Assembly: GCA_009885955.1 (NCBI GenBank)
Contig: VFJS01000061.1
Location: 30,228 to 94,227 of the forward strand
Source: Spirochaetia bacterium
GTDB taxonomy: Bacteria > Spirochaetota > UBA4802 > UBA5550
Direction of reading: 5' to 3'
Length of the DNA stretch: 64,000 nucleotides
The translations under genes and the position numbers were made by a program. The notes under the pieces were generated by a model. It made no database searches. It was not told the DNA's origin and saw only the letters and a program-made list of their open reading frames with translations. Positions 8,002-64,000 of the stretch are shown piece by piece (positions within the stretch are counted from its first letter, which is position 1; each line of letters opens with the position of its first letter).

Positions 8002-8258
8002 AAAATTTTTTTATTATATTAAACCCCGCAATAAGTACCCTATTGTGACAATGAATTTTCAGGATATCCTGAATTGCAGCTGCATGAAAACATCATGTTT
8101 GCTCTCGAACATCTCCTTATCCCCTTTTCTTACATTCTTTAAGAATATAAAATTCATTTTTTTAGTTATATGTATAATAAAAAAGTTGAAAAAAAATAAA
8201 CCTTTTCCAATATTGTCAAACTGATTACTAAAAGGAATTTTAACAAGAGGAAAATAAT

Positions 8259-8447
8259 ATGGCAAAATGTGAAGTATGCGGAAAATCTGTCCAATTCGGA
8301 CATAATGTAAGCCATTCCAATAGAAAAACAAAAAAAATGTGGCATCCCAACATTAAAAAACTGAGAGTCGTTGAAAACAAAAGAGTCCTGAGAAAGAATG
8401 TCTGCACAAACTGCATCAAATCTGGTAAAATCACCAAGGCAGGATAA
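8259..8447 (+). CDS. rpmB: 50S ribosomal protein L28
   Basis: MAKCEVCGK...GHNVSHSNRKTKKMWHPN...VCTNCIKSGK. Confidence 0.97.
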   Translation: MAKCEVCGKSVQFGHNVSHSNRKTKKMWHPNIKKLRVVENKRVLRKNVCTNCIKSGKITKAG

Positions 8448-8457
8448 ACAGCCTTCT

Positions 8458-9993
8458 TCAATAATCCGAATTTTTCCAACCCTTTAAATAATAACTATAA
8501 AGGACAGGACGGTTAAAGGAATTAATCCCGGTCTCTGATATTGATGTGTCCATGGGAAAATAAAGGGAATTGATAAAAGCCTCCCAGGAAAAATAGGAAA
8601 ATCCTTCCATCTCCCTTTTATCAGGCTTAAAACTCACTGGATTGATATTCTCATTGGAAGCAATGTTGAACCCCCAGTCGCCGAAGGATGGTATAAACAC
8701 ATGGTAGGGAACAACATTCCTGAAGACCCTCCCAAGGGTACGGTTGATGCACCAGAAGGCATCCCTGGCAAACAACGGCGATGTGGACTGCGTAACAAAG
8801 ATGCCTCCCGGCTTCAGGGAACGGCGCACCAGTGAGAAAAATTCCACGGAGTAAAGTTTGGAAATCGTTTCGTCGTGGGGGTCGGGAAAATCGGCAATAA
8901 TGATGTCGTATGTTTCGCTGCTCTTCATCAGATACGAATAGGCCTCACCCACAATCACCCTGACCCTGCTGTTTTCCAGGGATTTTTTGTTGAGCATGGA
9001 CATTGAGGAATTATACCTGGCAAGGTCGATCATGGCCCTGTCGAGCTCTACCAGGGTTACCGACTTTACATCGCCCTTCCTGAGAATCTCCCTCACTGCA
9101 AGCCCGTCGCCTCCGCCCAGGACAATAACATCCTTTGATTGGCTCCCGTTCATGAACAGCGCAGGGAATACAAGCATTTCATGATACCGGTATTCGTCCG
9201 ATGCAGAAAACTGAAGCGATCCGTCGAGGTAGAGCCTGAAGTCCCTGCCGCTTCTTGTGAGGACGATCTCCTGAAAATCAGACCTCTTGGAGTAAATGAT
9301 ATCATCATAATAGAGCCTCCTCTGCATCACCTGGGTCAGGGCATCGGATTTATAGGCGAGTATTGAAAGCAATACGATAAGCAGGGCAGGCACAAGAAGA
9401 TGCAACTTTCTTTTCCCCGGATATTCAATTTTTACCATGACCAGGAGAGCCACCCCCATGTTTATCAGGCCGATGATGAAGCTCGAAAGGAGCCTGCCTG
9501 CCACAGGGAACAGGAGGAGCGGAAAGAGCAGCGAGCCTGCAAGCCCGCCCATGTAGTCCAGAGTGAGAACATTTGATATAATGTCTTTGAACGCTCCGTG
9601 CTTCTTCAAAATGCGCGTCAGGAGGGGTATCTCCAGCCCCACCATGGTTCCGATTAACACGAGAAAAAACAGGTGGAGCAGGTAGTATGACGGTGAAAAG
9701 GAGAAAACCATGGAAAGGACCAGGACCGAAAGGCCTCCCGTAAAACCCAGGGCGGTTTCAATGATGATAAAGTCCCGGAGGATATTATTCACGAGAAATC
9801 TGGAAAGGAAGGAACCGATCCCCATGGAGCTGAGAAAAACCCCGATTGTTATTGAATACTGCTGCACCGGGTTTCCCAGGAGATAGGTAGCCAGGGAACC
9901 GAGGACGAGTTCATATATAATTCCGCAGAGTGAAAGTACAAAGACAGAAAAGAGAAGTAATTTTTCCTCGGAAAAGTTTAATGTCCTCTTCAC
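8458..9993 (-). CDS. speE: Polyamine aminopropyltransferase (spermidine synthase) with N-terminal multi-TM domain
   Basis: About 7 TM helices, then DGSLQF...DEYRYHE, VLGGGDG, VELD and ADFPDP. Confidence 0.9.
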   Translation of the reverse strand: MKRTLNFSEEKLLLFSVFVLSLCGIIYELVLGSLATYLLGNPVQQYSITIGVFLSSMGIGSFLSRFLVNNILRDFIIIETALGFTGGLSVLVLSMVFSFSPSYYLLHLFFLVLIGTMVGLEIPLLTRILKKHGAFKDIISNVLTLDYMGGLAGSLLFPLLLFPVAGRLLSSFIIGLINMGVALLVMVKIEYPGKRKLHLLVPALLIVLLSILAYKSDALTQVMQRRLYYDDIIYSKRSDFQEIVLTRSGRDFRLYLDGSLQFSASDEYRYHEMLVFPALFMNGSQSKDVIVLGGGDGLAVREILRKGDVKSVTLVELDRAMIDLARYNSSMSMLNKKSLENSRVRVIVGEAYSYLMKSSETYDIIIADFPDPHDETISKLYSVEFFSLVRRSLKPGGIFVTQSTSPLFARDAFWCINRTLGRVFRNVVPYHVFIPSFGDWGFNIASNENINPVSFKPDKREMEGFSYFSWEAFINSLYFPMDTSISETGINSFNRPVLYSYYLKGWKNSDY

Positions 9994-10268
9994 TGCTTGT
10001 TGATTTTCATTTCGGCCGGGGGGTTCTCAATTTTCCTTGATGCCGTGCTTGGCGACATGATGACCGACGCGATGATTATTGAAATGCCGATGATAACAGC
10101 CCCGATAATAATCCCCAGCGATATGTTCTGGTCGTCTTCTATCTCTTTTTTCACCGAGAAGGGCGCAAAAAAATTGATGATTAAAAAGCCCACTCCCATC
10201 AATATAATCCCCACCAGGGAATAGATTGCCGTATCGATGATGCCGGTTAAAATGTTATTCCAGTCCAT
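9990..10268 (-). CDS. DUF350 small membrane protein
   Basis: Two TM helices around KEIEDDQNISLGI; start placed at MDWNN. Confidence 0.8.
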   Translation of the reverse strand: MDWNNILTGIIDTAIYSLVGIILMGVGFLIINFFAPFSVKKEIEDDQNISLGIIIGAVIIGISIIIASVIMSPSTASRKIENPPAEMKINKQ

Positions 10269-10302
10269 GGTTAAAATCCTCCACATTTAAAATTTTCATT
10301 TA

Positions 10303-10488
10303 TCATTTGCCTCCTCTGAAACCCCTGGGACCCCCTGCGATGAAACCGCTCCCATGACGGATGGACTTCCTCATCTCCCGGTGCTTCGAGATGTAATCAT
10401 TCCCGGCCCTGGGATATCCTACAAGAAAATGGGACATGGCAAAGCCTCCTCCCAGCAATATCAGGGCAATTGCAATATATTTAGCCAT
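10303..10488 (-). CDS. Small membrane protein with Gly/Arg-rich tail
   Basis: Single TM, ends RGFRGGK, as typical for the small gene in DUF4178-DUF350-SpeE clusters; RBS present. Confidence 0.7.
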   Translation of the reverse strand: MAKYIAIALILLGGGFAMSHFLVGYPRAGNDYISKHREMRKSIRHGSGFIAGGPRGFRGGK

Positions 10489-50800: not shown

Positions 50801-52277
50801 CCATGCAGCTCAGGTTCATCTTTGATTTATTCACCGTGCCGTTGGGGTTGAACCGGGTAAATTTCGCGTCCTGGCCCCCGAGTTCGAAAATGGTATCCAC
50901 CCCGCCATTGAAGTGCCTCACGCCGAAGGCGTGGCAGGTAATTTCATCCTTTACAATATCACTGGATTTCATCGCAGGGTTTTTTTTCTGGTCGATAAAG
51001 AGTTTATGATAAAAAGCTCCCGAGGAGCCTGTAAATGCCGTGCCTGTAATCTCAATTCCGCTTCCAAGGTGCCTGCTGATCTGCCTGAATATCTCCTGCG
51101 CCGCCTGTAGCGGACGGCCGCTGGTATTGAGGCAGATCTCCGCAATGAGCTCAAGGTTTGCTTCATCGACAATTACAGCTTTGGTAGTTGTAGAGCCGCC
51201 GTCCATGCCCATGAGGACCCTGCGCCTGTGGCCTGCGATCCCGGCATATATTTTCAGATCATCCTTCACCGCCTCAGGGGACGTATCGTTCACAGACCGT
51301 ACCTTGCTCAGAGCATTGCTCAGAGGAGGGGCTTTTTTTATGCTCTCTTTATCGGATTTTGATATGCCGGCCAGGTCTCCGGGCTTAAATTTCATTCCCA
51401 TATTGCCGGCTTTTATGACAGCGCCGATTGCCCCTGCCTTCTGAAAGTTTTCAGGCACATCAATTGCCATGCCGAGTTCTGCCTCGAGCATCCTGACCAT
51501 GGCCCTTGATGCGAATACGCCGCCTGTGGCAATTGCCTGCTTCGAAGGGTCGAAAATCCTGGTCCTGAGGACATCGGAGCGGTAATTTCTGATTATCCTT
51601 ACACATGTCCCTTTAAGGATATTTCCAATTGTTTCGCCCCGGTTCTGAAGGTGGATCATATCTGACTGGATTACGACACCGCACCTGCCGCCAACGCTCA
51701 CATCCCTGTCTGAAAGCTCCAGTTCTTCAACTGCCCTCGAAAAGGTCTGTTTCAGACGGTTCTGCAGAATCTCCCTGTTCTTTCTCCTGTCATCGCCCAT
51801 GGTGACAGGAAACTCGTTCTCAAAAAACCTGCGGCACTGCCTGGCAATCAGTATGCCGCTCCCGCCGCCGCATTTGGTGCCGGTGCCGTGATCCTGGGTG
51901 AAGGACATGAACCTTGTCTCAACATTCACCCTCTCCTTCTCAAAATAGTATGGATCCTTTGCACCGATGTGGAATATATACTGAGCTTCCGGGGCTATCC
52001 GGCTAGCACCGGCCGGGATGGTAATGGTATCATGGTAAAAAGGCATACCGAGCCTCGCTGCTATAAGCCCTGAGATGCTCCCGGTGAAGGCTGTAGTTAT
52101 AATATCTTTGTAGGGGAAAATGGCAAGGATATCCGAATAGATGTCAAAAAGGGCATCGGCGGGATTTCCGAAATGGAAGACTGTTTCAGGTGAATGGCAT
52201 ATGTTTAACCCCCTGTCTGCGACAACGGCATTTATTGAATCAGTCCCTATATCAAATCCGACATAATATCCGCTCAT
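47835..52277 (-). CDS. Fused 2-hydroxyacyl-CoA dehydratase activase (two BadF/BcrAD ASKHA domains + DUF2229 + dehydratase-like region)
   Basis: GFDIGTDS and GMDGGSTTTK; KCGGGSG and SCMAGTG; ELGGQDAK; SETCYPVKLAHGH; FNCGAD; GPCRFGQY; PFGCM. Confidence 0.88.
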   Translation of the reverse strand: MSGYYVGFDIGTDSINAVVADRGLNICHSPETVFHFGNPADALFDIYSDILAIFPYKDIITTAFTGSISGLIAARLGMPFYHDTITIPAGASRIAPEAQYIFHIGAKDPYYFEKERVNVETRFMSFTQDHGTGTKCGGGSGILIARQCRRFFENEFPVTMGDDRRKNREILQNRLKQTFSRAVEELELSDRDVSVGGRCGVVIQSDMIHLQNRGETIGNILKGTCVRIIRNYRSDVLRTRIFDPSKQAIATGGVFASRAMVRMLEAELGMAIDVPENFQKAGAIGAVIKAGNMGMKFKPGDLAGISKSDKESIKKAPPLSNALSKVRSVNDTSPEAVKDDLKIYAGIAGHRRRVLMGMDGGSTTTKAVIVDEANLELIAEICLNTSGRPLQAAQEIFRQISRHLGSGIEITGTAFTGSSGAFYHKLFIDQKKNPAMKSSDIVKDEITCHAFGVRHFNGGVDTIFELGGQDAKFTRFNPNGTVNKSKMNLSCMAGTGQTMQNMAEMIGLDISSTFHEHAMRAASTPVVDDTCGVFTEAGISRLVALGFPRDEIAAAIVYGFMGGYVNKFVGNEKFGETASAQGGPFNGISCLAALAMHTGMDINAFPHRQLFGALGAAIALHGEIAGAAGEGIPRGSKFRGLEIGEMDFVRRTENCSTLVEASCGVKDCMLQMYEMAGDMVYSGGACPKGNTGVSGRRAPDYVAMYRNMLARHLEKYVSDISAPGVRERILIPRSLTFLNEKGVFYTALYKSLGFDIAVSPESDDAIVAMGINHSHSETCYPVKLAHGHAAFLKKHMRKGRDWILLVNAIGREGKKFCPYVAGDGFLARVALSIDSSDALLPVVNFNNPDYPIDRTIYKDLKRVFGRRFSMHDVSRALGLAHAAEKEFLDEIYSRGARIVDALKKRDVKIFLGIGRGYTILDDKASSRIHELFASNGLHFVPSFFIRDPGYDISDIAENMYWYQGARIINYNLLTAMDPGFFPVRETNFNCGADSMIIFHEESIINRSGKPHLVLQTDGHSSNAQFGTRALANFEVVKSHRHRPLTLDDFRITVQGPEMKGRIVGIPYMGENSHVISAAFRSLGYESEVMKTRTAKGCELSTKFVYSNACSPFTFQVGDCLAWLFELKERGIDPVEKALVFQPMTNGPCRFGQYFVILRKFFDECGFSGVPIFNPDSEVDYSNVPIPPVEIARLIQLYFKGTTCNDILADALLRTRPYERESGSADRAYGELSRELYGIVERGSDSEALSALMKKGAERYASLIDPALKRKPIVMMNGEIFVRSHPEANQDSIRLLEKYGLEVRLASLSQWFEYTNKKAIRQYIRAGRWKKLLEAVIKRIYMKRTSNRFYFPFREFLNGRDPHSTEHMIDSAQKDLIYDRLVTGESPISIGEAHMFTRGLLPDISGIYHVGPFGCMHETAATSQINALIQQQRLRAKNMNERIIPFMDAVFGDSELPNLEAEIAAFAEKCYLRMVILLQEN

Positions 52278-52559
52278 GAAAAACCTGAAATATATTTGTT
52301 TATCTATACATTCCTATACCGGAAAATCCAGGAATTGGACCGATCCGGCTGAGTTATTGACACAATACAATATGAAGCCGGTAATGCAACAATTTATTCT
52401 GAAATTTGCGGAAACCATAACAGGTTATTATTCATTGATGGCGCTTGGAGATTATGTTTATTTGCTTCAAAATAAATAATAAACAGGTTTTTAAGCAGTA
52501 TTTATTGTAGTACAAAGCATATAATCATGTAATAACGAGTTAGTAATCCATAAAAATAT

Positions 52560-52877
52560 CGCTCAGAGTATTTTAGTATTTTATCAAAACATTGGGTTGA
52601 TCCCTTCGAGGTGATGGTTGGCAATCATTTAATCCTGCTCAGAGAAGGGTTCATGGAGCGAAGTAATTACAATATGATATAGTATATTATCTGTATCTTC
52701 ATTATGCCTTATAGCTCAGAGCAATTAATTTTCCAATATAAAAACAGGGGTTATATACCAATAATTTTGATCGTTGAATAATATTTAACATTAATAACAA
52801 ATTATTTGGGCTGTTTTATCGGTTCAATTGCTGGAAGTGAAATACATGGAAACACATTAAAAAAATTGCTCTGCATA
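52560..52877. repeat. Cluster of TGCTCWGAGCA-like palindromes 3' of the RAYT gene
   Basis: Copies at 52560, 52636, 52713 and a degenerate one at 52867. Confidence 0.75.
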
Positions 52878-52962
52878 AGTTTTATATTAATGCTGAATAA
52901 TTACTTTGAGTGGGGAATTTCAATGAATTGCAGTATAAAAAATATATTGTAGTTTTTTTGAA

Positions 52963-53565
52963 TTATGAATGTAAAATATATTCCGGGAAAATTTTTTTCC
53001 TGAAATTCTCTTCGAAATCAAGAAATTTCTTCACCCTATCTTTAAATGAAATTCCGAAATTTAAAAAATATTTATGATATGTTAATTTTACAGGCGATAT
53101 ATAATTTTCATCAATATAAAAAAACATACAACCATATATATAATTTCTTGCGTCAGTAACATAATTTGCCATGACCGGATTATTAATTATATAACAATTA
53201 ATGTAATTAAATGCCATTTCAGGATCATCTGACTCCTCAATTATGGTATCCCCAAATCTTTCATTCCAGAAAGGACCACTCCTACCCATCTTTTTATTAT
53301 ACCTGATTGCATATTGAGCCTTAATGAACTGCATTATCAATGATATTGAAGGACCTTCTTCAAGAGTTCCAATAAAAAAATGGAAATGGTTATCCATGAT
53401 TACATAGGAAAAAAGTTCAAATCTATATTTTTCAAGGGCCATATTCATGACTTTAATCATAAGGTCCTTCATCTTATCATGTTTCATCATATTTTTTTTA
53501 TCAATGCATCTTGAATATAAATGATAAGTAAGGTTAGGCTCGCACCTTCTTACAGGATTTGTCAT
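52963..53565 (-). mobile_element. REP-associated tyrosine transposase (RAYT, Y1 HUH family)
   Basis: YHLYSR, YVIMDNHFH (HUH), GPFWNERF, YIINNPV; very AT-rich. Confidence 0.88.
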
Positions 53566-53646
53566 ATATTCTCCAGTTTCCTAAATTCAATGCAATACAT
53601 TTCTTATATTAATACGATTAAAACAGGAGAATATAGAAAGAAAAAT

Positions 53647-53900
53647 TGCTCTGAGCATAGTTTTGTTCTTCTGAGAAACAAAGAAATGTTAAGGTAAAAT
53701 CCTCTCATTCCATCAAAAAATCGGAAAAATCCTTAGAGCAAAACCAGAAGAATCTTTTGAAAGTAATGATGTAAAAGATAACAAAAATTCATAACTCTTG
53801 CCAAAATTTACATATAAAGCAGAAATTAACAAAAAATGCATGAAAAAATTGAATGCTCTGAGCAAGGAAATTGCAAGGAACAATGAATTAGCTCAGAGCA
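53647..53900. repeat. Cluster of TGCTCWGAGCA palindromes 5' of the RAYT gene
   Basis: Perfect copies at 53647 and 53854, near-perfect at 53890, degenerate at 53730. Confidence 0.8.
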
Positions 53901-54069
53901 ACCTAAAATGAGCAACCTAAATTATTTATTAATTCCGGTTCATAAACATCTTATTTTTTATTTGAAATGTCCAAATTTCGGCTCAACAAAAGGGTGTGGT
54001 AGAATGAACCGGCATTGGCAGGTTACTGAACAAAAAAAATTAAGGCCCGCTACCAGCATGAAGATGTTA

Positions 54070-54143: not shown

Positions 54144-56540
54144 TCAATAGAAGAGACAACGATGATTATACCTATCAACAATATACAATCTACCGTTGGA
54201 ATCAACACTGACACCCGAAGGATTATTCAAGCTGTCAGCACTGAGCCCTCCCTTATTCATTGTATAGGTTGTAAAATTCCTTCCCTGACCATAAACAGCT
54301 ATGGCTGTGGTGCTCGTTCCTGGGTAATACAATACTCGATGAGAACTATACGCAGCGATAAATACACCACTGGCACAAGCGACTACCTCATAGGGGGCTG
54401 TTAATGAATTGCTATTCACCCCATTAACAGTTTGATATGTGCTGGTTGCAAAATTGCCACCCTGGCCATAAACCCGCGTTGCCGTTGTGCTTGTACCTGA
54501 AAAATAGAGCACGCGGTTATTTACTCTATCAGAAATATATACCCCGCTGCCATATGCTGATACTCCATTAGGCTCATATAAGGAATTAGCGCTAAGACCG
54601 CCATTATTTGGTGTTGCAGTTGAGAAACTCCCTCCCTGGCCATAAACCCGCGTTGCCGTTGTGCTTGTGCCGGTGTAATACAAAACCCGATTATTATCTC
54701 TATCTGCGATATATACCCCGCTTGAATCAACTGCAACACCAAAAGGAGCAAACAGTGAATTTTCACTTGTACCCCCATTATTGGCTGTGTTAGTAGTGAA
54801 ACTTCCGCCCTGGCCATAGACCCGGATCGCCGTGGTGCTTGTACCACTATAATACAATACTCGGTTATTATTTGGTTCAGCAATATATATCCCGTTTGAA
54901 TCAATAGCTATTGACTGTGGAAAATATAAACTGTTGGCACTAATCCCGCCGTTATTTGGTGTTGAAGTAGTAAAACTCCCACCCTGTCCGTATACACGGG
55001 TGGCCGTAGTGCTTGTACCGCTATAATACAATACTCGGTTATTATATCCATCAGCAATATATACCCCGGTTGATGTCACGGTAATACGATATGGAGTATT
55101 TAGGCTATTCGCGCTTATCCCCCCATTATTACTCGTATTCGTTATAAAACTCCCTCCCTGGCCATAAACGCGGAGAGCCGTTGAATTATAGACATAGAGA
55201 GTTGTCTGCTGGACTGAAGAGCCCCCGGCATTTGTCGCGACTACAATGATCCGGTACATGGTGCTTGTAGAAAGGCCGGAAAACAGGCGCCCAGCGGCAG
55301 AGACGTCAAAGGGTCCCTGGGTGGCACCAAACACATTGGTACCTGAGGCAAAGATTATTCCGTCAACACCAAGGAAGGCATTGACAGTGGGTGCCGGATT
55401 GCCCCCGGCGAAAAAGGTGGGCAGATCCAGGGTTATGGATGACGCATCGGAAGCTGATATAACCAGGGGATTTAGTACCGGCACCGTTGATGTGGTGCTC
55501 TGGGTAATCTGCTGCACTGAATACCCGGCGCTGTTTTCCGCCACAACAATGATTTTATATGCCGTCGCGGCGCTCAGGCTGGTAAATTGCTTTGATGATG
55601 TGGCTACATTCACTGGCCCCTGCAGGTAACTGCTCACGGAGGTGGCTGTCACTGATATGGAGGCGCTTAATCCTAAATATGCCAGGACCGTGGGAGTGGG
55701 GTTCCCTGCTATGGAAAAGGTTGGTTGTGCCAGGGTTATGGTTGTAGCATCGAATGAAGATATGGAGAGCGCGTTCAATACCGGCGTTATGGCGGCCGTG
55801 CTCTGGACAATCTGCTTCACCGAATATCCCTGGCTATTTTCAGCCACAACAATAATTCTATAGGTGGTATTGGTACTCAAGCTGGAAAACTGGCATGTGG
55901 ATGTGGCAACGCTCACCGGCCCCTGCGTTGAATTACTCACGGTAGAACCGGAAACCGTTATGGTCCCGTCAATTCCTATATAGGCCCTCACCACGGGTAT
56001 CGGATTCCCGGCGGTGGAGAAGGTCGGCTGGCCCAGGGTTATGGAGCTTAAATCGGACGCGGTTATGACAAGGTTATTCATTACCGGTGCTATGGACGCC
56101 GTGCTCTGTATGATCGATTGTACCGAATAGCCCGCGGTATTTTGCGCGATTACAACGATTTTATAGGTGGTATTGGCGCTTAATCCGGTGAAGGTGCAAT
56201 CACCTGATGAGGCGTCAATTGGCCCCTGCTCATAATTGTTCACCGATGAACCCGATATGGTTATGGTCCCGCTCACTCCGATATAAGCAGCCACAATGGG
56301 TACCGGACTCCCTGCGGTTCCAAAGGTCGGCTGGGACAGGGTGATGGAGCTGGAATCTGACGCCGTTATAACAAGGGCGTTCATCACCGGTGCAACGGAT
56401 GACGGGTCGGTTCCGGAAGAATAATTTGTCCCAAGCGGGTCATTGGGATTGTTATAATCGATTTCACCCCCCACATTATCGCATGACACCTGTGTTAAAA
56501 TTAATGAAAGGGATAAAAAGATAAAAGATAATTTATTCAT
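54144..56540 (-). CDS. Surface lipoprotein with four Fn3-like repeats and an NHL-type beta-propeller
   Basis: Lipobox TQVSC then NNPNDP; four ~101-aa repeats ending T.Y.IIVVA.N..G.SV; six ~58-aa RVYGQG / YIAD..NNRVL repeats. Confidence 0.85.
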   Translation of the reverse strand: MNKLSFIFLSLSLILTQVSCDNVGGEIDYNNPNDPLGTNYSSGTDPSSVAPVMNALVITASDSSSITLSQPTFGTAGSPVPIVAAYIGVSGTITISGSSVNNYEQGPIDASSGDCTFTGLSANTTYKIVVIAQNTAGYSVQSIIQSTASIAPVMNNLVITASDLSSITLGQPTFSTAGNPIPVVRAYIGIDGTITVSGSTVSNSTQGPVSVATSTCQFSSLSTNTTYRIIVVAENSQGYSVKQIVQSTAAITPVLNALSISSFDATTITLAQPTFSIAGNPTPTVLAYLGLSASISVTATSVSSYLQGPVNVATSSKQFTSLSAATAYKIIVVAENSAGYSVQQITQSTTSTVPVLNPLVISASDASSITLDLPTFFAGGNPAPTVNAFLGVDGIIFASGTNVFGATQGPFDVSAAGRLFSGLSTSTMYRIIVVATNAGGSSVQQTTLYVYNSTALRVYGQGGSFITNTSNNGGISANSLNTPYRITVTSTGVYIADGYNNRVLYYSGTSTTATRVYGQGGSFTTSTPNNGGISANSLYFPQSIAIDSNGIYIAEPNNNRVLYYSGTSTTAIRVYGQGGSFTTNTANNGGTSENSLFAPFGVAVDSSGVYIADRDNNRVLYYTGTSTTATRVYGQGGSFSTATPNNGGLSANSLYEPNGVSAYGSGVYISDRVNNRVLYFSGTSTTATRVYGQGGNFATSTYQTVNGVNSNSLTAPYEVVACASGVFIAAYSSHRVLYYPGTSTTAIAVYGQGRNFTTYTMNKGGLSADSLNNPSGVSVDSNGRLYIVDRYNHRCLFY

Positions 56541-56563: not shown

Positions 56564-57508
56564 TTAAAACTGAATCGTGATTCCGGTCACTATACAGGGC
56601 CGGTTGAAATAATTGTTCCCCTGGGAAATCATGGGGCTCATGTACACAAAAGGAATAATTCCTGGATCAAAAATATTAAGTCCCCGGGCACTTCGCGCAG
56701 GGGAAAAAGCAAAGTACTGATAGAAAAAATATCCTGCAGCCAGGAAGGACGCTCCGCCCACTCCATAGGAAATATTTCTGTACAGGGCAAATTTCGCAGC
56801 GTCATCCCTGTTGCTTTTCATATCTTTATGGAGCTTTTCAGCCTCGGCCGATGCTGTTGCCGCCTTATATTTAACTGCCATGGAATCATAATCAGATTTC
56901 AGTGAACCCACCTGCATGTTGAAGTAATATCCCCCTCCAAACGACAGGAGAGATAGCCCGGTAAAGCCGAAGGCAGGGACACCGTAGGGGTTCCCTGCCC
57001 CCTGTTTTTTATCGCCGCCCCCTTTTCCAGCCACCCCTTTCTTATCAATGCTGCCGACCAGTTTACTGACGTAATTTGAAACAGTGGAGTGGAGATCACC
57101 CTCATCATTTGCAACGGCCTTCTCACTGAATTCAGCCACCCCTTTCTCTACGTCAACGATCCTTCCGGTTATTATTATTTTCCCGCCAAGCTTCATCACC
57201 GAACCGACGAGGATTTTCCTTGCACTCAGGACTTTCCCCATCTCAACCGCGCAGGAAACATCGGTGCAGCCCGATTGCTGCACACCCTGCTCCTTCAATA
57301 TCTGGTTCATCTGGGCCCTTTCGATAATGATGAACCTATCTGCGTTGATGAGCTCGTTCCGTATCAATTCCGATATCTTCCCCGCATCGGACACCGATAT
57401 GTCCTTTGCTTCAAAATCCATTATGGCAATCCGCATCTTTTCCTGGGAATATCCGGCGATTGCGGAGACAAGGAATAATATTGTCAAAAAAAGTTTTATC
57501 ATTTTCAT
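56564..57508 (-). CDS. CsgG/HfaB-like exported protein with C-terminal hydrophobic helices
   Basis: RIAIMDF...FIIIERAQMNQILKEQ...GCTDVSCAVEMGKVL. Confidence 0.75.
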   Translation of the reverse strand: MKMIKLFLTILFLVSAIAGYSQEKMRIAIMDFEAKDISVSDAGKISELIRNELINADRFIIIERAQMNQILKEQGVQQSGCTDVSCAVEMGKVLSARKILVGSVMKLGGKIIITGRIVDVEKGVAEFSEKAVANDEGDLHSTVSNYVSKLVGSIDKKGVAGKGGGDKKQGAGNPYGVPAFGFTGLSLLSFGGGYYFNMQVGSLKSDYDSMAVKYKAATASAEAEKLHKDMKSNRDDAAKFALYRNISYGVGGASFLAAGYFFYQYFAFSPARSARGLNIFDPGIIPFVYMSPMISQGNNYFNRPCIVTGITIQF

Positions 57509-57715
57509 GACTTCTCCTTCAAAATTATTATATGACTTTTAAAAATCATATCCTGGCATTGATCTGATTTAAAGAGGATAATGAGTTATGCCTGTTTGAT
57601 GATAAAAAATTTTGTTGTGAGAAAAAAATTTCTCTGCAATAATCTATTCCCATTTGCTTATGAAATAAATATACAAAATCTGCAAATTTTGGAGTTTTAA
57701 AATATTTTATTTTAC

Positions 57716-57738
57716 AGAGAGAGAGAGAGAGAGAGAGA
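57716..57738. repeat. (AG)11A microsatellite, intergenic
   Basis: Counted directly; about 210 bp upstream of the CsgG-like start. Confidence 0.92.
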
Positions 57739-57822
57739 ATGTAACTGCTCAACAAATTATCAATATGTATTATCCCCTCCATCAATACAATTTTATAATA
57801 CAATTTTATCCTTTATGCTCTT

Positions 57823-57845
57823 TTGCTTGCTTGCTTGCTTGCTTG
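57823..57845. repeat. (TTGC)5TTG tetranucleotide microsatellite, intergenic
   Basis: Counted directly. Confidence 0.9.
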
Positions 57846-57935
57846 ATAGTATGATTATTTTTAAATACAATAATCATACATTGATTAACTGTCAAGAAAA
57901 AAAAATTTATTCCAGGTTTAATAATGTTTCCCGTG

Positions 57936-58613
57936 TTACTTCATCCTGTTCTTCTCCCGAATCCTCTCCATCATCTCCTTTGCTTTGTCCCTGGCCTTTA
58001 GCTCGTTTGAGTCGCACGGGACGTCCCAGGGCTTTGTTATGTTCCAGGAGAGCTTTATCAGGAGTGGACTTTCAGGTAATGCCCCGGGGTCGCACATGGT
58101 ATATCCCATAAATTCAACAGGTTTTTCCTGGTACGAGGCACGCACTGCATCCCGTATGAGGCCCGGGTCCCCCTGGAACTGCAGGTCAATGAGGGTTACC
58201 TGTTTTCTGAAACGTTCTATAAATTCGATGGGGACATTGTACAGAATCGGGTGAAGGGCTTCGGTCCCTATGATTTTGTTCTTATCATCAACGCCATTCT
58301 TCATAAGGGCTTTCAGCGCCTCCCCGGTGCTGTGCCCCGGGGATTCAGGACCGCCGAGGATGAGCCAGCGGATATTGGGGTTGGCAACGACATTACATAT
58401 TATTTTCTCAAAGCCGATATTTGGGGTCTGGACAGTCCCGGAAAGTGCGGCCCCGCTTTCAGCGCCTGCACGCACCAGGGATTCAATCTCCGGCGGAATC
58501 TTGTCCTCATCGGTATTCAGTATTATGGCCACGGCGGCAGGGGAAAAATCATTCCCCCGGATGTAACGACCAGGTTCCGGGGGATAATCGGGATGGGATT
58601 TTACTTTTAGCAT
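57936..58613 (-). CDS. Soluble MtrA/MtxA-like corrinoid protein (tetrahydromethanopterin S-methyltransferase subunit A homolog)
   Basis: G.YI.G...SPAAV; GAALSGTVQTPNIGFEKIICNVVANPNIRWLILGGPESPGHSTGEAL..L.KNGVD...IIG...P...N.P...IERFRKQV, collinear with archaeal MtrA including the GH.TG cobalt-ligand His; AAGGAG RBS. Confidence 0.85.
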   Translation of the reverse strand: MLKVKSHPDYPPEPGRYIRGNDFSPAAVAIILNTDEDKIPPEIESLVRAGAESGAALSGTVQTPNIGFEKIICNVVANPNIRWLILGGPESPGHSTGEALKALMKNGVDDKNKIIGTEALHPILYNVPIEFIERFRKQVTLIDLQFQGDPGLIRDAVRASYQEKPVEFMGYTMCDPGALPESPLLIKLSWNITKPWDVPCDSNELKARDKAKEMMERIREKNRMK

Positions 58614-58650
58614 GGATTACTCCTTTCAAGATGATATAATTCACTTATTG

Positions 58651-58732
58651 TGCTCTGAGCTTCCTGGCTTTCCACTCGCCGTGCTCTGAGCTCCTTCACC
58701 CTGTTCCGGGAGACGAGCCGGGGATGGGGTAT
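58651..58732. repeat. Two TGCTCTGAGCT palindrome copies plus a degenerate CCCTCTCCC-type repeat
   Basis: Copies at 58651 and 58682; 58691-58732 resembles the arm at 23245-23288. Confidence 0.65.
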
Positions 58733-58807
58733 TTATCAAAAAAATTCCCCTCCTGAACCAAAAAACAACGTTCTCATGCCCAAATAAAAACATACACTTC
58801 CTTGATT

Positions 58808-60157
58808 TTATAACATTCTCTCCAGTTTTTGAACTGCCATCTGTACCGGATCCCACGGGCTGCTGAGCGGGGGCGTGTAGCTCAAGTCGTAATTACTGAA
58901 TTCCCGGACGGTCATCCCGTGATAGATTGCGGAAGCAAAAATATCAACACGCTTTGAAACTTCGGTTTTATAGGCACCGAGCATCTGGGCCCCCAGTATT
59001 CTTTTAGTTGCTTTATCAGCAATCACACGAATATATATTTTTTCAGCTATCGGATAATAGGCCTTGTGGTCCCAGGTTTCGAAATCGGCGTATATTGGTT
59101 TAAATCCGGCATCAATGGCTTCCTTTGCATTCAGCCCTGTCCGGGCAGCGACTTTATCGAATATTTTCACCGACTGCGTCCCCAGCGACCCGGCAAATTC
59201 CCGGTTTCCGCCAACGGCATTTTCACCGGCGATCCGCCCATGCTTGTGGGCTACTGTTCCCAGCGGCAGGTAAGTGTATTTTTGCAAGAGTCTATGCCAT
59301 GTCTCAGAACAATCCCCGGCCGCATAGATATCAGGAATATTTGTTTCCATCTTTTGATTTACTTTGAAGGCACCTTTTGTGCCTGTGTCGATTCCGGTTG
59401 AGCGGCCCAAGCCGGTATTTGGAACACTGCCGACGGATACCAGCACCATGTCGGCCTGGAGTTCTAATCCCCCGGATCCTTTTACCGTGAGAGTGTCACC
59501 GTTTTTATCGATTGACTCAACGGAAATTTTATTATGCACGGTAATTCCGGCCTGTATGAGCATATCCTTTATTTTTAGGCTTAATTCGATATCCATTGAC
59601 GGCATAACCGATTCGGCGAATTCAACAACGGTCACTTTCAAACCACGGCTGGTGAGCGCCTCGGACATTTCCATGCCGATATAACCGGCGCCGATAATGA
59701 CCGCTGTCCGGGGGTTTCGCTTTTCAATAAATTCATCAATGGCGAATGCCTCGGGCATCCAGCGCAGAAAGAAAACGCCGGGATGATGGATCCCCGGGAT
59801 ATCAGGCTTTACCGACACCGCGCCGGTACCGATGATCAGTTTATCATACTCGAGGGTTTTCGCAATGCCCGCGTTATCAATTACTCTGATCGTTTTATTC
59901 CGGATATTAACAGTTTCAGCCCGATGCTCCAGGAGAAGGCGGACACCTTCCTTTTCGATCTCCTCTCTTGTACGGTGGGCAAGGTTCTTCCAGTGTTTCA
60001 CTTCATGGCTAATGTAATAGGGCAGCCCGCAGATACTGAAATTTGGATAGTTATCGCCAACAATCATGGTTGCCACAGCTTCCGGATCAAGTTCGATTGC
60101 TCTGAGCGCGGCACTGATGCCTGCATCGCTGCCGCCGATGATGACAATATTTTTCAT
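58808..60157 (-). CDS. CoA-disulfide reductase / NADH oxidase family flavoprotein
   Basis: IIGGSDAG, FSICGLPYY (single redox Cys), IGAGYIG.E, YAAGD, DLSYTPPLS..WDP. Confidence 0.9.
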   Translation of the reverse strand: MKNIVIIGGSDAGISAALRAIELDPEAVATMIVGDNYPNFSICGLPYYISHEVKHWKNLAHRTREEIEKEGVRLLLEHRAETVNIRNKTIRVIDNAGIAKTLEYDKLIIGTGAVSVKPDIPGIHHPGVFFLRWMPEAFAIDEFIEKRNPRTAVIIGAGYIGMEMSEALTSRGLKVTVVEFAESVMPSMDIELSLKIKDMLIQAGITVHNKISVESIDKNGDTLTVKGSGGLELQADMVLVSVGSVPNTGLGRSTGIDTGTKGAFKVNQKMETNIPDIYAAGDCSETWHRLLQKYTYLPLGTVAHKHGRIAGENAVGGNREFAGSLGTQSVKIFDKVAARTGLNAKEAIDAGFKPIYADFETWDHKAYYPIAEKIYIRVIADKATKRILGAQMLGAYKTEVSKRVDIFASAIYHGMTVREFSNYDLSYTPPLSSPWDPVQMAVQKLERML

Positions 60158-60252
60158 ATATGACGCACCCTCCTGAAAAGTGAATGTTAAATGCTTATAT
60201 AGGATGATAATTCAATTTGCAATAGATGAAGAGCTTACTGACAGATCTTTCA

Positions 60253-61335
60253 TCATATAAAAAACTTTTTCCTGAACCAGAGCGAAACATTGACAAGCCC
60301 GATGAGAACCGGCACTTCCACAAGGGGGCCCACAACCGTGGCAAAGGCTATTGGCGATGCGATTCCGAAAACCGCAATGGCAACTGCAATGGCAAGCTCA
60401 AAATTGTTGCCGGATGCGGTAAATGCCAGTGTCGCGCTTCTGCTGTAATCAGCACCCAGCCTGCGGGCCATGAAAAAACTTACCATGAACATGATAACAA
60501 AATAGCAGCTGAGCGGTATGGCGATCCAAAGTACGTCCTGGGGATGATAGATTATCTGTTTCCCCTGCATGCTGAACATCACCACAATGGTAAAAAGAAG
60601 GGCTACAAGGGTTATGGGTGATATCTTCGGGACAAAGACTCTGTCATACCACTGGTCCCCCTTTACCGGCAGAAGGATAACACGGCTGAGGATCCCCGCG
60701 CCAAAGGGTATGCCGAGATAGATCATTACACTGACGAATATTTCTCTTATGGTTACATTAACAACCATCCCCTGGAGGCCGAAAAATGCCGGGAGAACTG
60801 TTACAAAAATCCAGGCATAAACCCCGAAGGTGAGTATCTGAAATATACTGTTCAGCGCAACCAGCCCGGCTGCATACTCGCTGTTGCCGCCTGCAAGCTG
60901 GTTCCAGACCAGAACCATGGCGATACAGCGGGCGATTCCGACAAGGATGAGGCCTACCATGTAATTACCCCACCGCGGATCCGGGCCGAAAATTGAGGGG
61001 GCGATGAAACCGAAAAACAGGACTGAAAGGGCGAACATTAAAATGGGCCCCACTATCCAGTTCTGGATTAAGGAGAGGCTCACGATTTTAACATCGGCAA
61101 AGACCTTGGGCATCAGCTCATATTTGACCTTTGCCAGGGGCGGGTACATCATGAGGATGAGCCCGATGGCGATGAGGAGATTGGTGTTTTCCCCAACCGT
61201 GAGTGCCTTGTTGAAACTTTCAACGGCTCCCTGAAAAACAAAACCGACTGCCACCCCAATCCCCATGGCGAGAAATATCCAAAGCGTTAAATAGCGGTCG
61301 AGAAAGGATAATTTTTTTGTTAAACCGACTGTCAT
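60253..61335 (-). CDS. acr3: ACR3-family arsenite efflux transporter
   Basis: [57 protein letters not shown]. Confidence 0.96.
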
Positions 61336-61393
61336 ATGCAAACCCCATGAAATATTTATTTTTTAAAACGGATATTACAAGAAACTTGAAGTG

Positions 61394-61429
61394 GCTGAAT
61401 CCAGGATGGATCTGCATCCGGGATTCAGC
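61394..61429. other. 15-bp stem-loop overlapping the arsR stop codon
   Basis: gctgaatccaggatg / catccgggattcagc, one mismatch, 6-nt loop. Confidence 0.6.
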
Positions 61430-61811
61430 ATCTCTCTTTTTGTTTCCCATTTTTTCTATCCGTGTCGCTCCAGCATTGCATCAATGTGCCGCTGGCCTTT
61501 TTGTTTTTCAGTTTGTCAGTATCAAGGCGGCAGGCATCAATTTTTTCAAAGGATAATGCAAGATATTCCACGAGCAGAGGGTGTTCACTCATGAAATCAT
61601 CATTTATTCTGTAAAATACCCACTGGGCATTTTTTCTGGATTTCAGTGCCCCTGCCACGCTCAACCTGTTCAGATGGCGCGAAACGTTTGTCTGGGAAAG
61701 ACCGAGAATTTCCTCGATCTCACAAACGCAGAGCTCACCCTGCATAACAAGGTTCAATATTCTAAGCCTGTTGCTGTCCCCAAGTGCCTTTAATGTTTTT
61801 TCCAGTTCCAT
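61425..61811 (-). CDS. arsR: ArsR/SmtB transcriptional repressor
   Basis: KALGDSNRLRIL...ELCVCEI...SQTNVSRHL..L...QWVFY. Confidence 0.93.
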   Translation of the reverse strand: MELEKTLKALGDSNRLRILNLVMQGELCVCEIEEILGLSQTNVSRHLNRLSVAGALKSRKNAQWVFYRINDDFMSEHPLLVEYLALSFEKIDACRLDTDKLKNKKASGTLMQCWSDTDRKNGKQKERC

Positions 61812-61842
61812 GAATAGTATTTTTATGGTTCAGTGCTTTATA

Positions 61843-61894
61843 ATGCGTATATTCAAATATATGCATATACTAACAATATACATAATTTTGTCAA
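61843..61894 (-). promoter_or_regulatory. sigma70-like promoter and ArsR-type operator upstream of arsR
   Basis: Minus strand TTGACA (61894-61889), 16-nt spacer, TAGTAT preceded by TGn; followed by the 11-2-11 inverted repeat atgcgtatatt-ca-aatatatgcat (61843-61866). Confidence 0.65.
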
Positions 61895-61912
61895 TATATT
61901 TTACAACTTTTT

Positions 61913-62128
61913 AGCTCAGAACAACTTTTTGTTTGCTCAAAACTGTTTGCTCAGAGCAATTATCCCGCTGCTAAAAGTATTTCAGACCTTTGCTCAGAGT
62001 ATTTGACACTAGCTGGCTGGCTTGATCAGAGCAACTTTATTTGTTTTAGCTTCTATTTGCTCAGCCAGCGAAAAAGCCCGGTCCCTGAGCTGAGTTGGGC
62101 TCAGAGCAACTAACCACTGCTCAGAGCA
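61913..62128. repeat. Dense cluster of TGCTCAGAGCA-like palindromes
   Basis: Good copies at 61913, 61948, 61991, 62023, 62098, 62118; degenerate at 61934, 61969, 62058, 62081. Confidence 0.85.
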
Positions 62129-62165
62129 ATAAACCTTATTTCAATAACGGGATAAAACCAATAAT

Positions 62166-62397
62166 TCACACATAAAAGATAAGATATAAACCGCCTGTAA
62201 TTACCAGCATTCCACAAACCTTTTTCAGTATCACCGTGCCTTTTGACTACTCATTCCAGTTAAAATAGCTCTGCACAGCTTCTGTGAAGGTTCCGGCCAA
62301 TATGATAACGGAGCAGTGGCCTGAGGCATAGGCCGGGATTAATGATGCCTCCAGTAATGATAAAAGCCGGAATAACGAATTGGATTAATTTTTTCAT
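62166..62397 (-). pseudogene. Remnant of a CcdA/DsbD-like membrane protein (C-terminus), joined out of frame to an unrelated N-terminus
   Basis: MKKLIQFVIPAFII start in one frame; a second frame reads PAYASGHCSVIILAGTFTEAVQSYFNWNE*SKGTVILKKVCGMLVITGGLYLIFYV with an internal TAG. Confidence 0.55.
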
Positions 62398-62417
62398 TTT
62401 ATTTTCATCTTTAATAT

Positions 62418-62579
62418 TTATTTGTCAAGGTGATTTTTCATCCCCTTGATGGACGAAGATGATATACTCCCGAGGAGTTCTTTCACCAATGCCAGCGCGT
62501 CGTCCCTGTCACTGTCAAGGACTATCCGCTTCATACGGATTACATCATTATAATTGAATGTTACATTTTTTGTTTCCAT
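62418..62579 (-). CDS. Small hypothetical protein (53 aa, below the ORF-track cutoff)
   Basis: METKNVTFNYNDVIRMKRIVLDSDRDDALALVKELL...HLDK; GAGG upstream; co-oriented in the ars cluster. Confidence 0.55.
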   Translation of the reverse strand: METKNVTFNYNDVIRMKRIVLDSDRDDALALVKELLGSISSSSIKGMKNHLDK

Positions 62580-62669
62580 ACAACCGGCCTCGCGAAATTA
62601 TTTATGAAATACATCTTTTTGATGAGGCCGGTCACTGGCCTAAAATCCCGTTGCACCATGGCGCCCATT

Positions 62670-63677
62670 TCAATATATAAGATTAAACAGATACCCCACC
62701 AGCATTATCCCTGTTGCCACAATGCCGACAAATATAAATATCAGCGGGAGCTTCAGCACTTTCTTCAATATGATCATCTCGGGAAGGGAAAGGCCGATGA
62801 CCGACATCATGAAGGCAAGGGTTGTACCCAGTGATGCCCCCTTTTCCAGAAGCGCCTGCACGATGGGAATTATCCCCGCGGCATTTGAATACATGGGGAC
62901 CCCGATAAGCACCGCTGCCGGGATGGACCACCATGCCGATTTCCCCATAAGCGAGGCCATGAAATTTTCCGGCACATAACCGTGGATGCCGGCTCCAACG
63001 CCGATCCCGATGACGATATATATCCAGACCCTGGAAACTATTTCTCTTACCGCCGCATACCCGGCATTGATCCTGTCTGCCGGGTTAAGCCGTAGTTCCT
63101 CAAGTTTCATGTCTCCGGCTTTTATCTCATATACCCACTCCTCTACATAGCGTGTCAGGTTGAGTTTCCCGATAATCCAGCCCGAGGCTATAGCTATGAA
63201 AAGTCCTGTGCCGGCATAGAGCAGGGCCGTCTTCCATCCGAAAAGGCCGAAGAGAAGCACCAGTGCTACTTCGTTAATCATGGGTGCTGCAATAAGAAAG
63301 GAGAAGGTAACTCCTAAAGGGATACCGCTCTCCATGAAGCCGAGGAATAGCGGAATGGCTGAGCATGAGCAGAAGGGGGTAACAATCCCCAGAGCGCTGG
63401 CCATGATATTCCCGACAAAAAGGGGTTTCCCTTCAAGGGCTTTCCTTGTTTTTTCCGGCGAAAAGAATGAGCGGAGGATGCCCACGAAGAAGACGATGAA
63501 TGTGAGGAGCATGAGCACTTTGGGAACTTCAAACATAAAAAAACGAAGGGCTTCGGTGAGACTGGAGCTCCGTTCCATGCCCATAATTGAATAGACGATA
63601 TAGTTTACCCCTCTCTCAAGGTTAAAGTAGAGCGCTGCTCCGGCAGGCAGGAGTAATAGCGGAATGAAAGCCCTCAT
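62670..63677 (-). CDS. ArsP/DUF318-family permease
   Basis: TPFCSCSAIPLF.G, P.GVTFSFLI..P.INE, GVPMYSNAAG, IGLSLPEMI.L; start placed at the ATGA overlap. Confidence 0.9.
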   Translation of the reverse strand: MRAFIPLLLLPAGAALYFNLERGVNYIVYSIMGMERSSSLTEALRFFMFEVPKVLMLLTFIVFFVGILRSFFSPEKTRKALEGKPLFVGNIMASALGIVTPFCSCSAIPLFLGFMESGIPLGVTFSFLIAAPMINEVALVLLFGLFGWKTALLYAGTGLFIAIASGWIIGKLNLTRYVEEWVYEIKAGDMKLEELRLNPADRINAGYAAVREIVSRVWIYIVIGIGVGAGIHGYVPENFMASLMGKSAWWSIPAAVLIGVPMYSNAAGIIPIVQALLEKGASLGTTLAFMMSVIGLSLPEMIILKKVLKLPLIFIFVGIVATGIMLVGYLFNLIY

Positions 63678-63910
63678 ATGGTGCTTATCCATTTTTTTAT
63701 TTCATCCTTTGATGGAATTTTTCCCGCAATCCTGACCACTCCATCAACCACAAGGGCCGGAGTAGCCATGACTCCGTATGCCATAATCTCTTTGATGTCC
63801 CGGACTTTTGTCACTTCAGCGTCTATACACAACTCCTTCACCACTTCCTTAGTGATTTCCTCAAGTTTACTGCATTTAGCGCACCCGGTACCCAGTATTT
63901 CAAGTCTCAT
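63674..63910 (-). CDS. Small redox-active disulfide protein (MTH895-type thioredoxin)
   Basis: ILGTGCAKC...YGVMATPALVVDG. Confidence 0.92.
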   Translation of the reverse strand: MRLEILGTGCAKCSKLEEITKEVVKELCIDAEVTKVRDIKEIMAYGVMATPALVVDGVVRIAGKIPSKDEIKKWISTI

Positions 63911-64000
63911 GTTATTGTCCCTTTATAATTATTATGATGATAAATTGACCAAATTGCCATGAATGAAAAAAAAAATTTATTTATTTCTGCAAGTCATGAT

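Follow-up and report, generated by a model that had tools for sequence, protein, structure and literature searches.

Introduction

The speciation of arsenic in rice, and with it the straighthead disorder, is governed by the methylation and demethylation of arsenic in anoxic soils. The enzymes known for these two steps are ArsM, a class I methyltransferase that uses S-adenosylmethionine (SAM) and has an As(III) site of three cysteines, and ArsI, a dioxygenase requiring O2. In addition, McBride and Wolfe are said to have described, in 1971, a methylcobalamin-dependent formation of dimethylarsine by Methanobacterium. In the available parts of two texts on anaerobic arsenic demethylation, the responsible enzyme is given as still unknown, the candidates are the corrinoid methyltransferases of methylotrophic methanogens, and the MtrA-like family goes unmentioned (PMC10579292; bioRxiv 10.64898/2026.08.27.747368). 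In the study of the MtrA homologue that Methanothermus fervidus has in its cytoplasm, bacterial homologues are mentioned in passing and, as far as the available part of that text goes, no function is assigned to them (PMC4915002). Moreover, the genes of another corrinoid protein, hgcAB, have been reported to be flanked by acr3, arsC, arsR and arsM, according to the part of the source that was available (PMC7438021). The subject of this paper is an mtrA-like gene in an arsenic-resistance (ars) locus of a Spirochaetia bacterium (assembly GCA_009885955.1), lying in a stretch of 64,000 nucleotides of contig VFJS01000061.1 (positions 30,228 to 94,227), which is hereafter called the window.

The MtrA-like protein belongs to the MtrA family of corrinoid proteins, is soluble and has no membrane anchor, and the clade of proteins of about 225 amino acids in which it falls represents an accessory ars-operon gene of strict anaerobes, bacterial as well as archaeal. 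The family, the fold, the conserved ligand residues, the linkage to ars genes and a candidate ArsR promoter/operator upstream are shown by the present analysis. A full-text search of the literature, with subscription journals and supplements outside its coverage, found no link of an MtrA-like protein to ars genes.

Family, Fold and Ligand Residues of the MtrA-like Protein

First of all, the protein belongs to the MtrA family. The search with the MtrA Pfam profile that the earlier note had proposed gave a match of 118.9 bits to PF04208 against a cut-off of 25, and the NCBIfam model NF002126 was matched with 174.2 bits against a cut-off of 161. [quoted passage not shown] The GH.TG motif, which had been read from the sequence beforehand, is indeed present as G93-H94-S-T96-G97, and His94, which is aligned with the cobalt ligand His84 of MtrA, is kept in all 173 members of the clade over which residue conservation was counted. 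The charged tail and the lack of a membrane anchor, both noticed earlier, also hold: the C-terminal helix is charged, and the highest hydropathy over 19 residues is 1.03, compared with 2.4–2.6 in four anchored MtrA representatives, so that the protein is taken to have no membrane anchor. The AlphaFold2 (AF2) model has a mean confidence (pLDDT) of 91.1. In Foldseek, the model, whose underlying alignment included MtrA sequences, matches 5LAA and 5L8X with target TM-scores of 0.92–0.94 and E 1e-17, the score for 5LAA being 0.94 at 38% identity.

The cobalamin contacts are those named for the M. fervidus homologue in the available part of PMC4915002, and they were transferred through the alignment with 5LAA. 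Thr53, Asn55, Gly57, Asn64 and His84 of that protein correspond to T63, N65, G67, N74 and H94 here, each of which is invariant (173 of 173 members). Tyr18 corresponds to Y17, where the clade has Y in 154 and F in 18 of the 173. Glu54 of MtrA, which is hydrogen-bonded to the histidine ligand, corresponds to position 64, and this position is more variable: Glu is found in 130 members and Pro in 39, the remainder having Ala (3) or Val (1).

Extent of the Clade

A word-indexed search found 2,438 homologs of the MtrA-like protein at E ≤ 1e-5. The best 120 of them are 66–100% identical to it and about 225 amino acids long, and where these carry any database name it is "tetrahydromethanopterin S-methyltransferase subunit A"; the ESM Atlas likewise contains MtrA-named clusters only. 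The clade of ~225-residue proteins extends, at 60–77% identity, across Spirochaetota, Actinomycetota, Chloroflexota, Desulfobacterota, methanogens and Bathyarchaeia. In the tree against MtrA (81 rows, quick IQ-TREE), which had also been proposed beforehand, this ars-linked clade and its soluble relatives stand apart from the anchored MtrA across a long branch (length 1.4, support 99). An extra helix at residues 41–52 and a conserved C-terminal extension of ~55 residues are specific to the clade.

In the clades just outside the ars-linked one, the MtrA-like domain is fused to an iron-sulfur (FeS) domain of the type found in the corrinoid iron-sulfur protein (CFeSP) (P0128) or to a ferredoxin domain (P0133), and more distant clades carry thymidylate-synthase-like domains (11 of 27) or the pterin-binding DUF4346 (3 of 27). 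A sister group of the ars-linked clade, P0129–P0131, has a Cys-rich C-terminal extension of ~200 residues that matches no Pfam family, and P0129 has besides it a weakly TusA-like N-terminus. An apparent ArsC-MtrA fusion (P0139) was set aside as an adjacency or gene-call artefact, its inter-domain sequence looking like out-of-frame read-through. Plasmid carriage was set aside as well; it concerns only distant relatives with a DUF4346 fusion, on plasmids of Planococcus and Paraburkholderia, where the context is uninformative.

Linkage to ars Genes across Loci

The neighbourhoods of mtrA-like genes were compared in 56 genome loci and 80 metagenome loci, in which open reading frames (ORFs) were called and clustered and the clusters were named with Pfam and NCBIfam. 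L056 and L057 were dropped as weak, L042, L104, L127 and L172 were dropped because the gene had been missed by the ORF caller, and L071 (G007) was added, which gives 131 loci; these are not independent, some genome, metagenome and G-handle loci being the same records. The genes acr3, arsP, arsC, arsM, arsA and arsD were counted as core ars genes, and the distance was set at 5 kb. A core ars gene is found within this distance of the mtrA-like gene in 60 of the 131 loci and in 25 of the 44 loci with a flank of at least 8 kb; after dereplication of the MtrA-like proteins at 90% identity, 47 of 93 clusters are ars-linked. The linkage covers at least six phylum-level lineages, and the enrichment of homologs near ars genes that the earlier note had left to a neighbourhood survey is thus borne out. 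On the tree, the ars-linked rows belong to Spirochaetota, Actinomycetota, Chloroflexota, Methanomicrobiales, Methanosarcinales and Bathyarchaeia, and among Spirochaetota seven of eight loci are ars-linked, a set that partly overlaps with the first locus set.

As for the individual genes within 5 kb, ArsP occurs in 32 of the 131 loci, Acr3 in 31, ArsR in 28, DsbD_TM in 24, DGC in 15, TrxE in 14, ArsC in 12, ArsM in 11, ArsA in 7 and ArsD in 4. The acr3 of the window is the sole acr3 match in a search of its own genome, that is, there is one acr3 in 4.77 Mb, and an estimated ~0.3% of positions lie within 5–6 kb of it; compared with this value, the presence of acr3 in 31 of 131 loci puts the ars neighbourhood of mtrA-like genes far above chance. 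The labelled genes directly upstream of mtrA-like are Acr3 (11 on the same strand and 1 on the opposite strand) and ArsP (9 on the same strand). In G007, a relative of the same family, the order is arsR-trxE-arsP-DGC-(160-aa ORF)-dsbD-acr3-mtrA-like-arsC with a 41-nt gap after acr3, and the mtrA-like gene stands directly between acr3 and arsC in this locus and in L195 and L196. Same-strand gaps of 2–41 nt or overlaps are found in L002, L094 and G007.

The mtrA-like gene itself is patchily distributed, occurring in 18 of 301 genomes of the phylum and in 1 of 40 close relatives, as would be expected of an accessory resistance gene.

The Arsenic Locus of the Window

The genes arsR and acr3, the flavoprotein gene and the mtrA-like gene are co-oriented on the minus strand, following the thioredoxin-like and ArsP genes; ORF calls, Pfam and NCBIfam recovered all of them just as they had first been described. 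The promoter and the 11-2-11 operator assigned earlier to arsR were likewise found again, as a promoter-like site and an inverted repeat (as shown in Table 1).

Table 1. Genes and candidate control sites of the ars locus (positions in the window)
Feature	Position	Strand	Details
MtrA-like gene	57936-58613	-	225 aa; PF04208 E 2.4e-34; NF002126
Spacer, flavoprotein gene to MtrA-like gene	58614-58807	-	194 nt; AGGAG 7 nt before ATG
FAD (flavin adenine dinucleotide) pyridine-nucleotide disulfide oxidoreductase, single-Cys CoA-disulfide reductase (CoADR)/NADH-oxidase class (Cys43)	58808-60157	-	449 aa; Pfam, NCBIfam
Acr3 arsenite efflux permease	60253-61341	-	TIGR00832 407.8 bits vs cut-off 282.8
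ArsR/SmtB repressor, ELCVCE motif	61425-61811	-	HTH_5 E 1.1e-15; NF033788 89.3 bits, over 55
11-2-11 inverted repeat, candidate ArsR operator	61843-61866	.	91% complementary; directly downstream of the -10 element
Sigma-70-like promoter TTGACA-16-TAGTAT, extended TG	61867-61894	-	10/12 matches; consensus match only
53-aa ORF, no known family	62418-62579	-	no match in Pfam/NCBIfam
ArsP_1-family permease	62670-63692	-	PF03773 E 5.7e-72; 19-nt overlap with thioredoxin-like gene
MTH895/ArsE-family thioredoxin-like protein (CxxC)	63674-63910	-	TIGR00412 112.9 bits vs cut-off 62

The motif ELCVCE is presumably the As(III) site of an ArsR of the R773 type. The inverted repeat occurs at one site in the window, compared with 0 expected in shuffled sequences. 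The unit arsR-acr3-flavoprotein-mtrA-like is probably transcribed from the ArsR-controlled promoter at 61894–61867 and de-repressed by As(III). The gaps within the unit are 83, 95 and 194 nt, and no terminator-like site was found in any of the three. The last gap ends in a good ribosome-binding site. Rfam gave no match at E ≤ 1, either in this gap or across 57400–64000, and with an unremarkable fold energy (z -0.88) a riboswitch or other RNA in the 194-nt gap was rejected. A second ArsR/SmtB gene (arsR2; 111 aa, ELCVCE) lies just past the window end, on the minus strand at 2205–2540 of L068, upstream of the thioredoxin-like and ArsP genes, and the locus therefore consists of two ArsR-headed units. 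In L068, which overlaps the window end, no second copy of the repeat of the first unit was found, only the same site being matched. The ArsP_1 permease scores under the SaoE and SO_0444 equivalog cut-offs of NCBIfam.

The flavoprotein, described at first as being of the CoA-disulfide-reductase type, fits that description in class only. Its domains are Pyr_redox_2, Pyr_redox and Pyr_redox_dim (Pfam), and the single active-site cysteine, Cys43, was taken from the sequence; but the best NCBIfam match, the CoA-disulfide reductase TIGR03385, reaches 374 bits under a cut-off of 578.8, and PRK09564 is matched with 343.9 bits under 458. Because it stays under every equivalog cut-off, it is called here a protein of the CoADR/NADH-oxidase (Nox) class and no proven CoADR. 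None of the 54 genome loci in the first survey has a homolog of it, and it stands alongside mtrA-like in the ars loci of 5 of 80 metagenome loci and of two Spirochaetota genomes (G280 and G236), where its orthologs lie 2.4–2.5 kb downstream of the MtrA-like gene. L141 has the window order acr3-flavoprotein-mtrA-like, and L094 has acr3-mtrA-like-flavoprotein. Of six close orthologs in the phylum sample (55–72% identity), three adjoin acr3, arsC or arsP. The flavoprotein was therefore rejected as an obligate partner; being recurrent, yet absent from the 54 genome loci, it is an occasional one.

Another candidate partner is a pair of tandem radical SAM/SPASM genes between the mtrA-like and flavoprotein genes of close relatives, in L192 (G280; 8173–10481) and L096 (6100–8371). 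These genes are akin to metalloenzyme maturases (TIGR04317-like, about 255 bits, under the cut-off of 380). The pair was rejected as a core partner, since it occurs in only 6 of 131 loci; the window lacks it, and a search of the window genome at E ≤ 1e-10 did not find it.

For the 53-aa ORF, tblastn found counterparts close to trxE in two related ars loci, L094 and, at 58% identity, L192, and none in the 56 genome loci; it may be a real small protein of ars clusters. Just downstream of the mtrA-like stop codon there are two microsatellites, (CT)n at about 57715–57738 and (AAGC)n at about 57822–57846. The next genes after the ars cluster, both on the minus strand, encode a CsgG/LpoB-like lipoprotein (56564–57508) and a 798-aa protein that contains both NHL and fibronectin-III-like repeats (54144–56540), and they appear to be unrelated to it. 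Further on, an AT-rich stretch at about 52000–54000 (G+C 0.28–0.34, against about 0.45–0.55 in its surroundings) contains an IS200-like Y1 transposase gene (52963–53565, minus strand).

Related Gene Content of the Host Genome

The window genome is 98% complete. The earlier note had stated for the window that it contains no other mtr subunit, no arsM and no arsC, and the first two statements can be extended to the genome. MtrH (PF02007) had 0 matches, whereas control genomes responded, and no second MtrA (PF04208) was found, only the gene of the ars locus being matched; MtrB–G were not searched singly. Having no anchor, no MtrH and no second MtrA beside it, the MtrA-like protein cannot be a subunit of an Mtr complex. 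ArsM was not found over the cut-off in the genome either, the best score being 81.8 bits against 263. As for arsC, the statement is right for the operon in the window, but elsewhere in the genome, on contig C70, there is a thioredoxin-type arsC (L059, 1477–1923) away from the ars cluster, with a CX5R loop and two further cysteines.

The B12-related content of the genome includes 12 matches to the B12-binding domain, a Wood-Ljungdahl corrinoid (CFeSP) cluster and a RACo-type activator. Moreover, contig C76 carries an hgcA-hgcB pair (L074: 1381–2406 and 2413–2721) behind a MarR-like regulator gene. This HgcA has 341 aa, the cap-helix GINVWCAAGK and a membrane domain, and the HgcB is a 102-aa ferredoxin ending in CC. 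With hgcAB in its genome, the bacterium is also a putative methylator of mercury.

Proposed Role and Alternative Explanations

The MtrA-like protein is likely to bind a cobamide, as its conserved contact residues suggest, and there is good reason to expect that it is part of the arsenic response. Its assignment as a methyl-cobamide carrier acting on arsenicals is a tentative one, and the methyl transfer to or from arsenic that is predicted for it should be taken with the same reserve. In the window, the mtrA-like gene is the last gene of the unit arsR-acr3-flavoprotein-mtrA-like. In the proposed mechanism, the cobamide would be held base-off/His-on through His94, and the protein would alternate between the Co(I) and the methyl-Co(III) state. 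From the cobamide, the methyl group would be passed to As(III), that is to say, a SAM-independent route to methylarsenicals would be provided; in the reverse direction, which is chemically the same reaction, it would be taken off pentavalent methylarsenicals. The As(V) intermediates would be reduced by thiol/disulfide proteins, a part played here by the thioredoxin-like protein together with the Cys43 flavoprotein and in other clusters by Trx and DsbD-like proteins, and the products would be exported by ArsP and Acr3. Methyl loading would be carried out by an enzyme encoded elsewhere; the genome has the Wood-Ljungdahl corrinoid cluster and the RACo-type activator. The FeS and ferredoxin fusions of the nearby clades speak in favour of a redox-active corrinoid chemistry.

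Several observations weigh against this role. At the level of the loci, 71 of 131, and 19 of the 44 with long flanks, lack a core ars gene within 5 kb, and among the neighbour clusters of mtrA-like loci no methyltransferase for loading or accepting the methyl group is conserved. ArsM is close by in 11 of the 131, an arrangement that would make a methylase superfluous and the work of a demethylase futile, and MAs(III) (trivalent methylarsenic) made under anoxia is no obvious detoxification. At the level of the window, the 194-nt gap upstream of the mtrA-like gene means that co-transcription is not assured. The window copy, in addition, has Pro64 in place of the Glu; Cys160, present in 171 of 173 members, is Ser in it and in its 89%-identical relative only; and its terminal branch is long (0.39; median 0.17). 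Should Cys160 be important for the function, the window copy may work differently or less well.

Among the other explanations, a thiol-based accessory protein, which is rather unlikely, comes first. Cys73 and Cys160, possibly with His121 or His94, would bind As(III) or form a redox disulfide, and the protein would be a cytoplasmic chaperone, buffer or sensor passing As(III) to Acr3 or ArsP, with cobamide absent or only structural. Cys73 is kept in 173 of 173 members, at a position taken by A, S, G or V in the anchored MtrA representatives, and Cys160 is nearly as constant; the gene directly upstream is most often that of a transporter (Acr3 in 11 loci, ArsP in 9); and thiol proteins abound in the mtrA-like clusters (TrxE, Trx, DsbD_TM, DGC and C_GCAxxG_C_C). 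But all the cobalamin-contact residues, including the His ligand, are invariant in the clade, which is hard to explain without the cofactor. As(III) sites usually consist of three cysteines, and only two are conserved here, one of which, Cys160, is lost in a window copy that is nevertheless retained in an ars operon as an intact ORF of family length.

It is also quite unlikely that the protein does not act on arsenic at all and is either one that carries, stores or protects corrinoids in general or one of one-carbon (C1) metabolism, which either travels with mobile ars islands or is needed since arsenic stress damages B12 enzymes, so that the ars linkage would be co-regulation or hitch-hiking only. 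The ars-less 71 of 131 loci, among which no second conserved context emerged (a generic ABC ATPase cluster being not specific), fit such a role, as does the patchy, transfer-like distribution, and in the available parts of two sources MtrA-like proteins of non-methanogens are read as parts of C1 methyltransferases (PMC11291895, PMC9723677). The linkage, however, holds across at least six phylum-level lineages; the tight same-strand operon spacing in L002, L094 and G007 is unlike that of a passenger gene; and the window genome has no MtrH or pterin-binding partner.

A cobamide-dependent reduction, in which Co(I) would act by its strong reducing or nucleophilic power without methyl transfer and, with electrons from ferredoxin-type partners, would for example reduce arsenate or pentavalent organoarsenicals or form volatile arsines, is very unlikely: the FeS and ferredoxin fusions in neighbouring clades, arsC near the gene in 12 of 131 loci, the placement between acr3 and arsC in G007, L195 and L196, the lack of an arsC in the window operon itself and a reported formation of arsenic hydrides by cob(I)alamin in extracts of methanogens point to it, but ArsC co-occurs with the MtrA-like protein and is not replaced by it (the arsC of the window genome being unlinked), no electron-donor gene is conserved alongside mtrA-like, and the MtrA family is known as a methyl carrier only, according to the available part of PMC4915002.

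Returning to the proposed methyl-cobamide carrier, a wider claim, still doubtful, is that the clade as a whole would be the catalytic corrinoid component of an unrecognised cobamide-dependent arsenic methyl-transfer system of anaerobes, an arsenite methylase or a demethylase. In the methylase form, it would be the SAM-independent enzyme behind the old methylcobalamin observations in methanogens; in the demethylase form, it would be the long-sought oxygen-independent demethylase of methylarsenicals. Such a system would be widespread in sediments, paddy-type soils and methanogens.

Significance

The MtrA-like clade is a concrete candidate for a missing B12-dependent step in anaerobic arsenic handling. 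Its members are corrinoid-family proteins whose genes are set in the ars operons of many anaerobic phyla and for which the databases name only a methanogenesis subunit; an mtrA-like gene met with in genome surveys is no evidence of C1 metabolism of the methanogenesis type. The parallel with the unexplained ars neighbourhood of hgcAB hints that corrinoid proteins and the handling of metalloids are linked more widely. Should the chemistry be another one, a new and common accessory gene of anaerobic ars operons has still been found.

Comparison with Known Systems

The closest described protein is the MtrA homologue found in the cytoplasm of M. fervidus, with which the MtrA-like protein shares a soluble single-domain Rossmann-like MtrA fold, the same His ligand and most of the cobalamin contacts, with no membrane helix in either, as far as the available part of the source describes them (5LAA; Wagner, Ermler & Shima 2016, PMC4915002). 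The differences are that the ars-linked clade is separated from the MtrA group by the long branch described above, that it has the helix 41–52, the C-terminal extension, Cys73 and His121 (Ile111 in MtrA), and that it is set in ars operons and not in methanogenesis.

The MtrA of the Na+-pumping MtrA–H methyltransferase (5L8X, 8Q3V, 9QTQ–9QTS) is of the same Pfam family and fold, and it is a corrinoid methyl carrier with a His-on cobalt ligand, a histidine that the window protein shares as His94. The window protein differs from it in having no C-terminal transmembrane helix and in its bacterial host, in which no mtrH or other mtr gene was found. Since it cannot join the Mtr complex, "tetrahydromethanopterin S-methyltransferase subunit A" is the label of its family and not its function.

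ArsM, like the MtrA-like protein, resides in ars operons and is a possible functional analogue for arsenic methylation, but it is SAM-dependent and has no cobamide; the C-As lyase ArsI is a possible functional analogue if the MtrA-like protein demethylates arsenic. The mercury-methylation pair HgcA/HgcB is similar in outline: in anaerobes, a corrinoid protein is associated with a toxic element and has helpers of the ferredoxin type. HgcA belongs to an unrelated, CFeSP-like fold family and has a membrane domain and a Cys-ligating cap helix with the motif N(V/I)WCA(A/G)GK, which is absent from the 225-aa MtrA-like sequence; the hgcAB of the window genome, moreover, form a locus separate from the ars locus. 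What the two systems further have in common is that no dedicated methyl-loading enzyme stands alongside and that ars-gene neighbours are reported, for hgcAB in the available part of PMC7438021. In summary, what is known here is the protein family and its fold, and what is new is the conserved ars setting together with the features specific to the clade.

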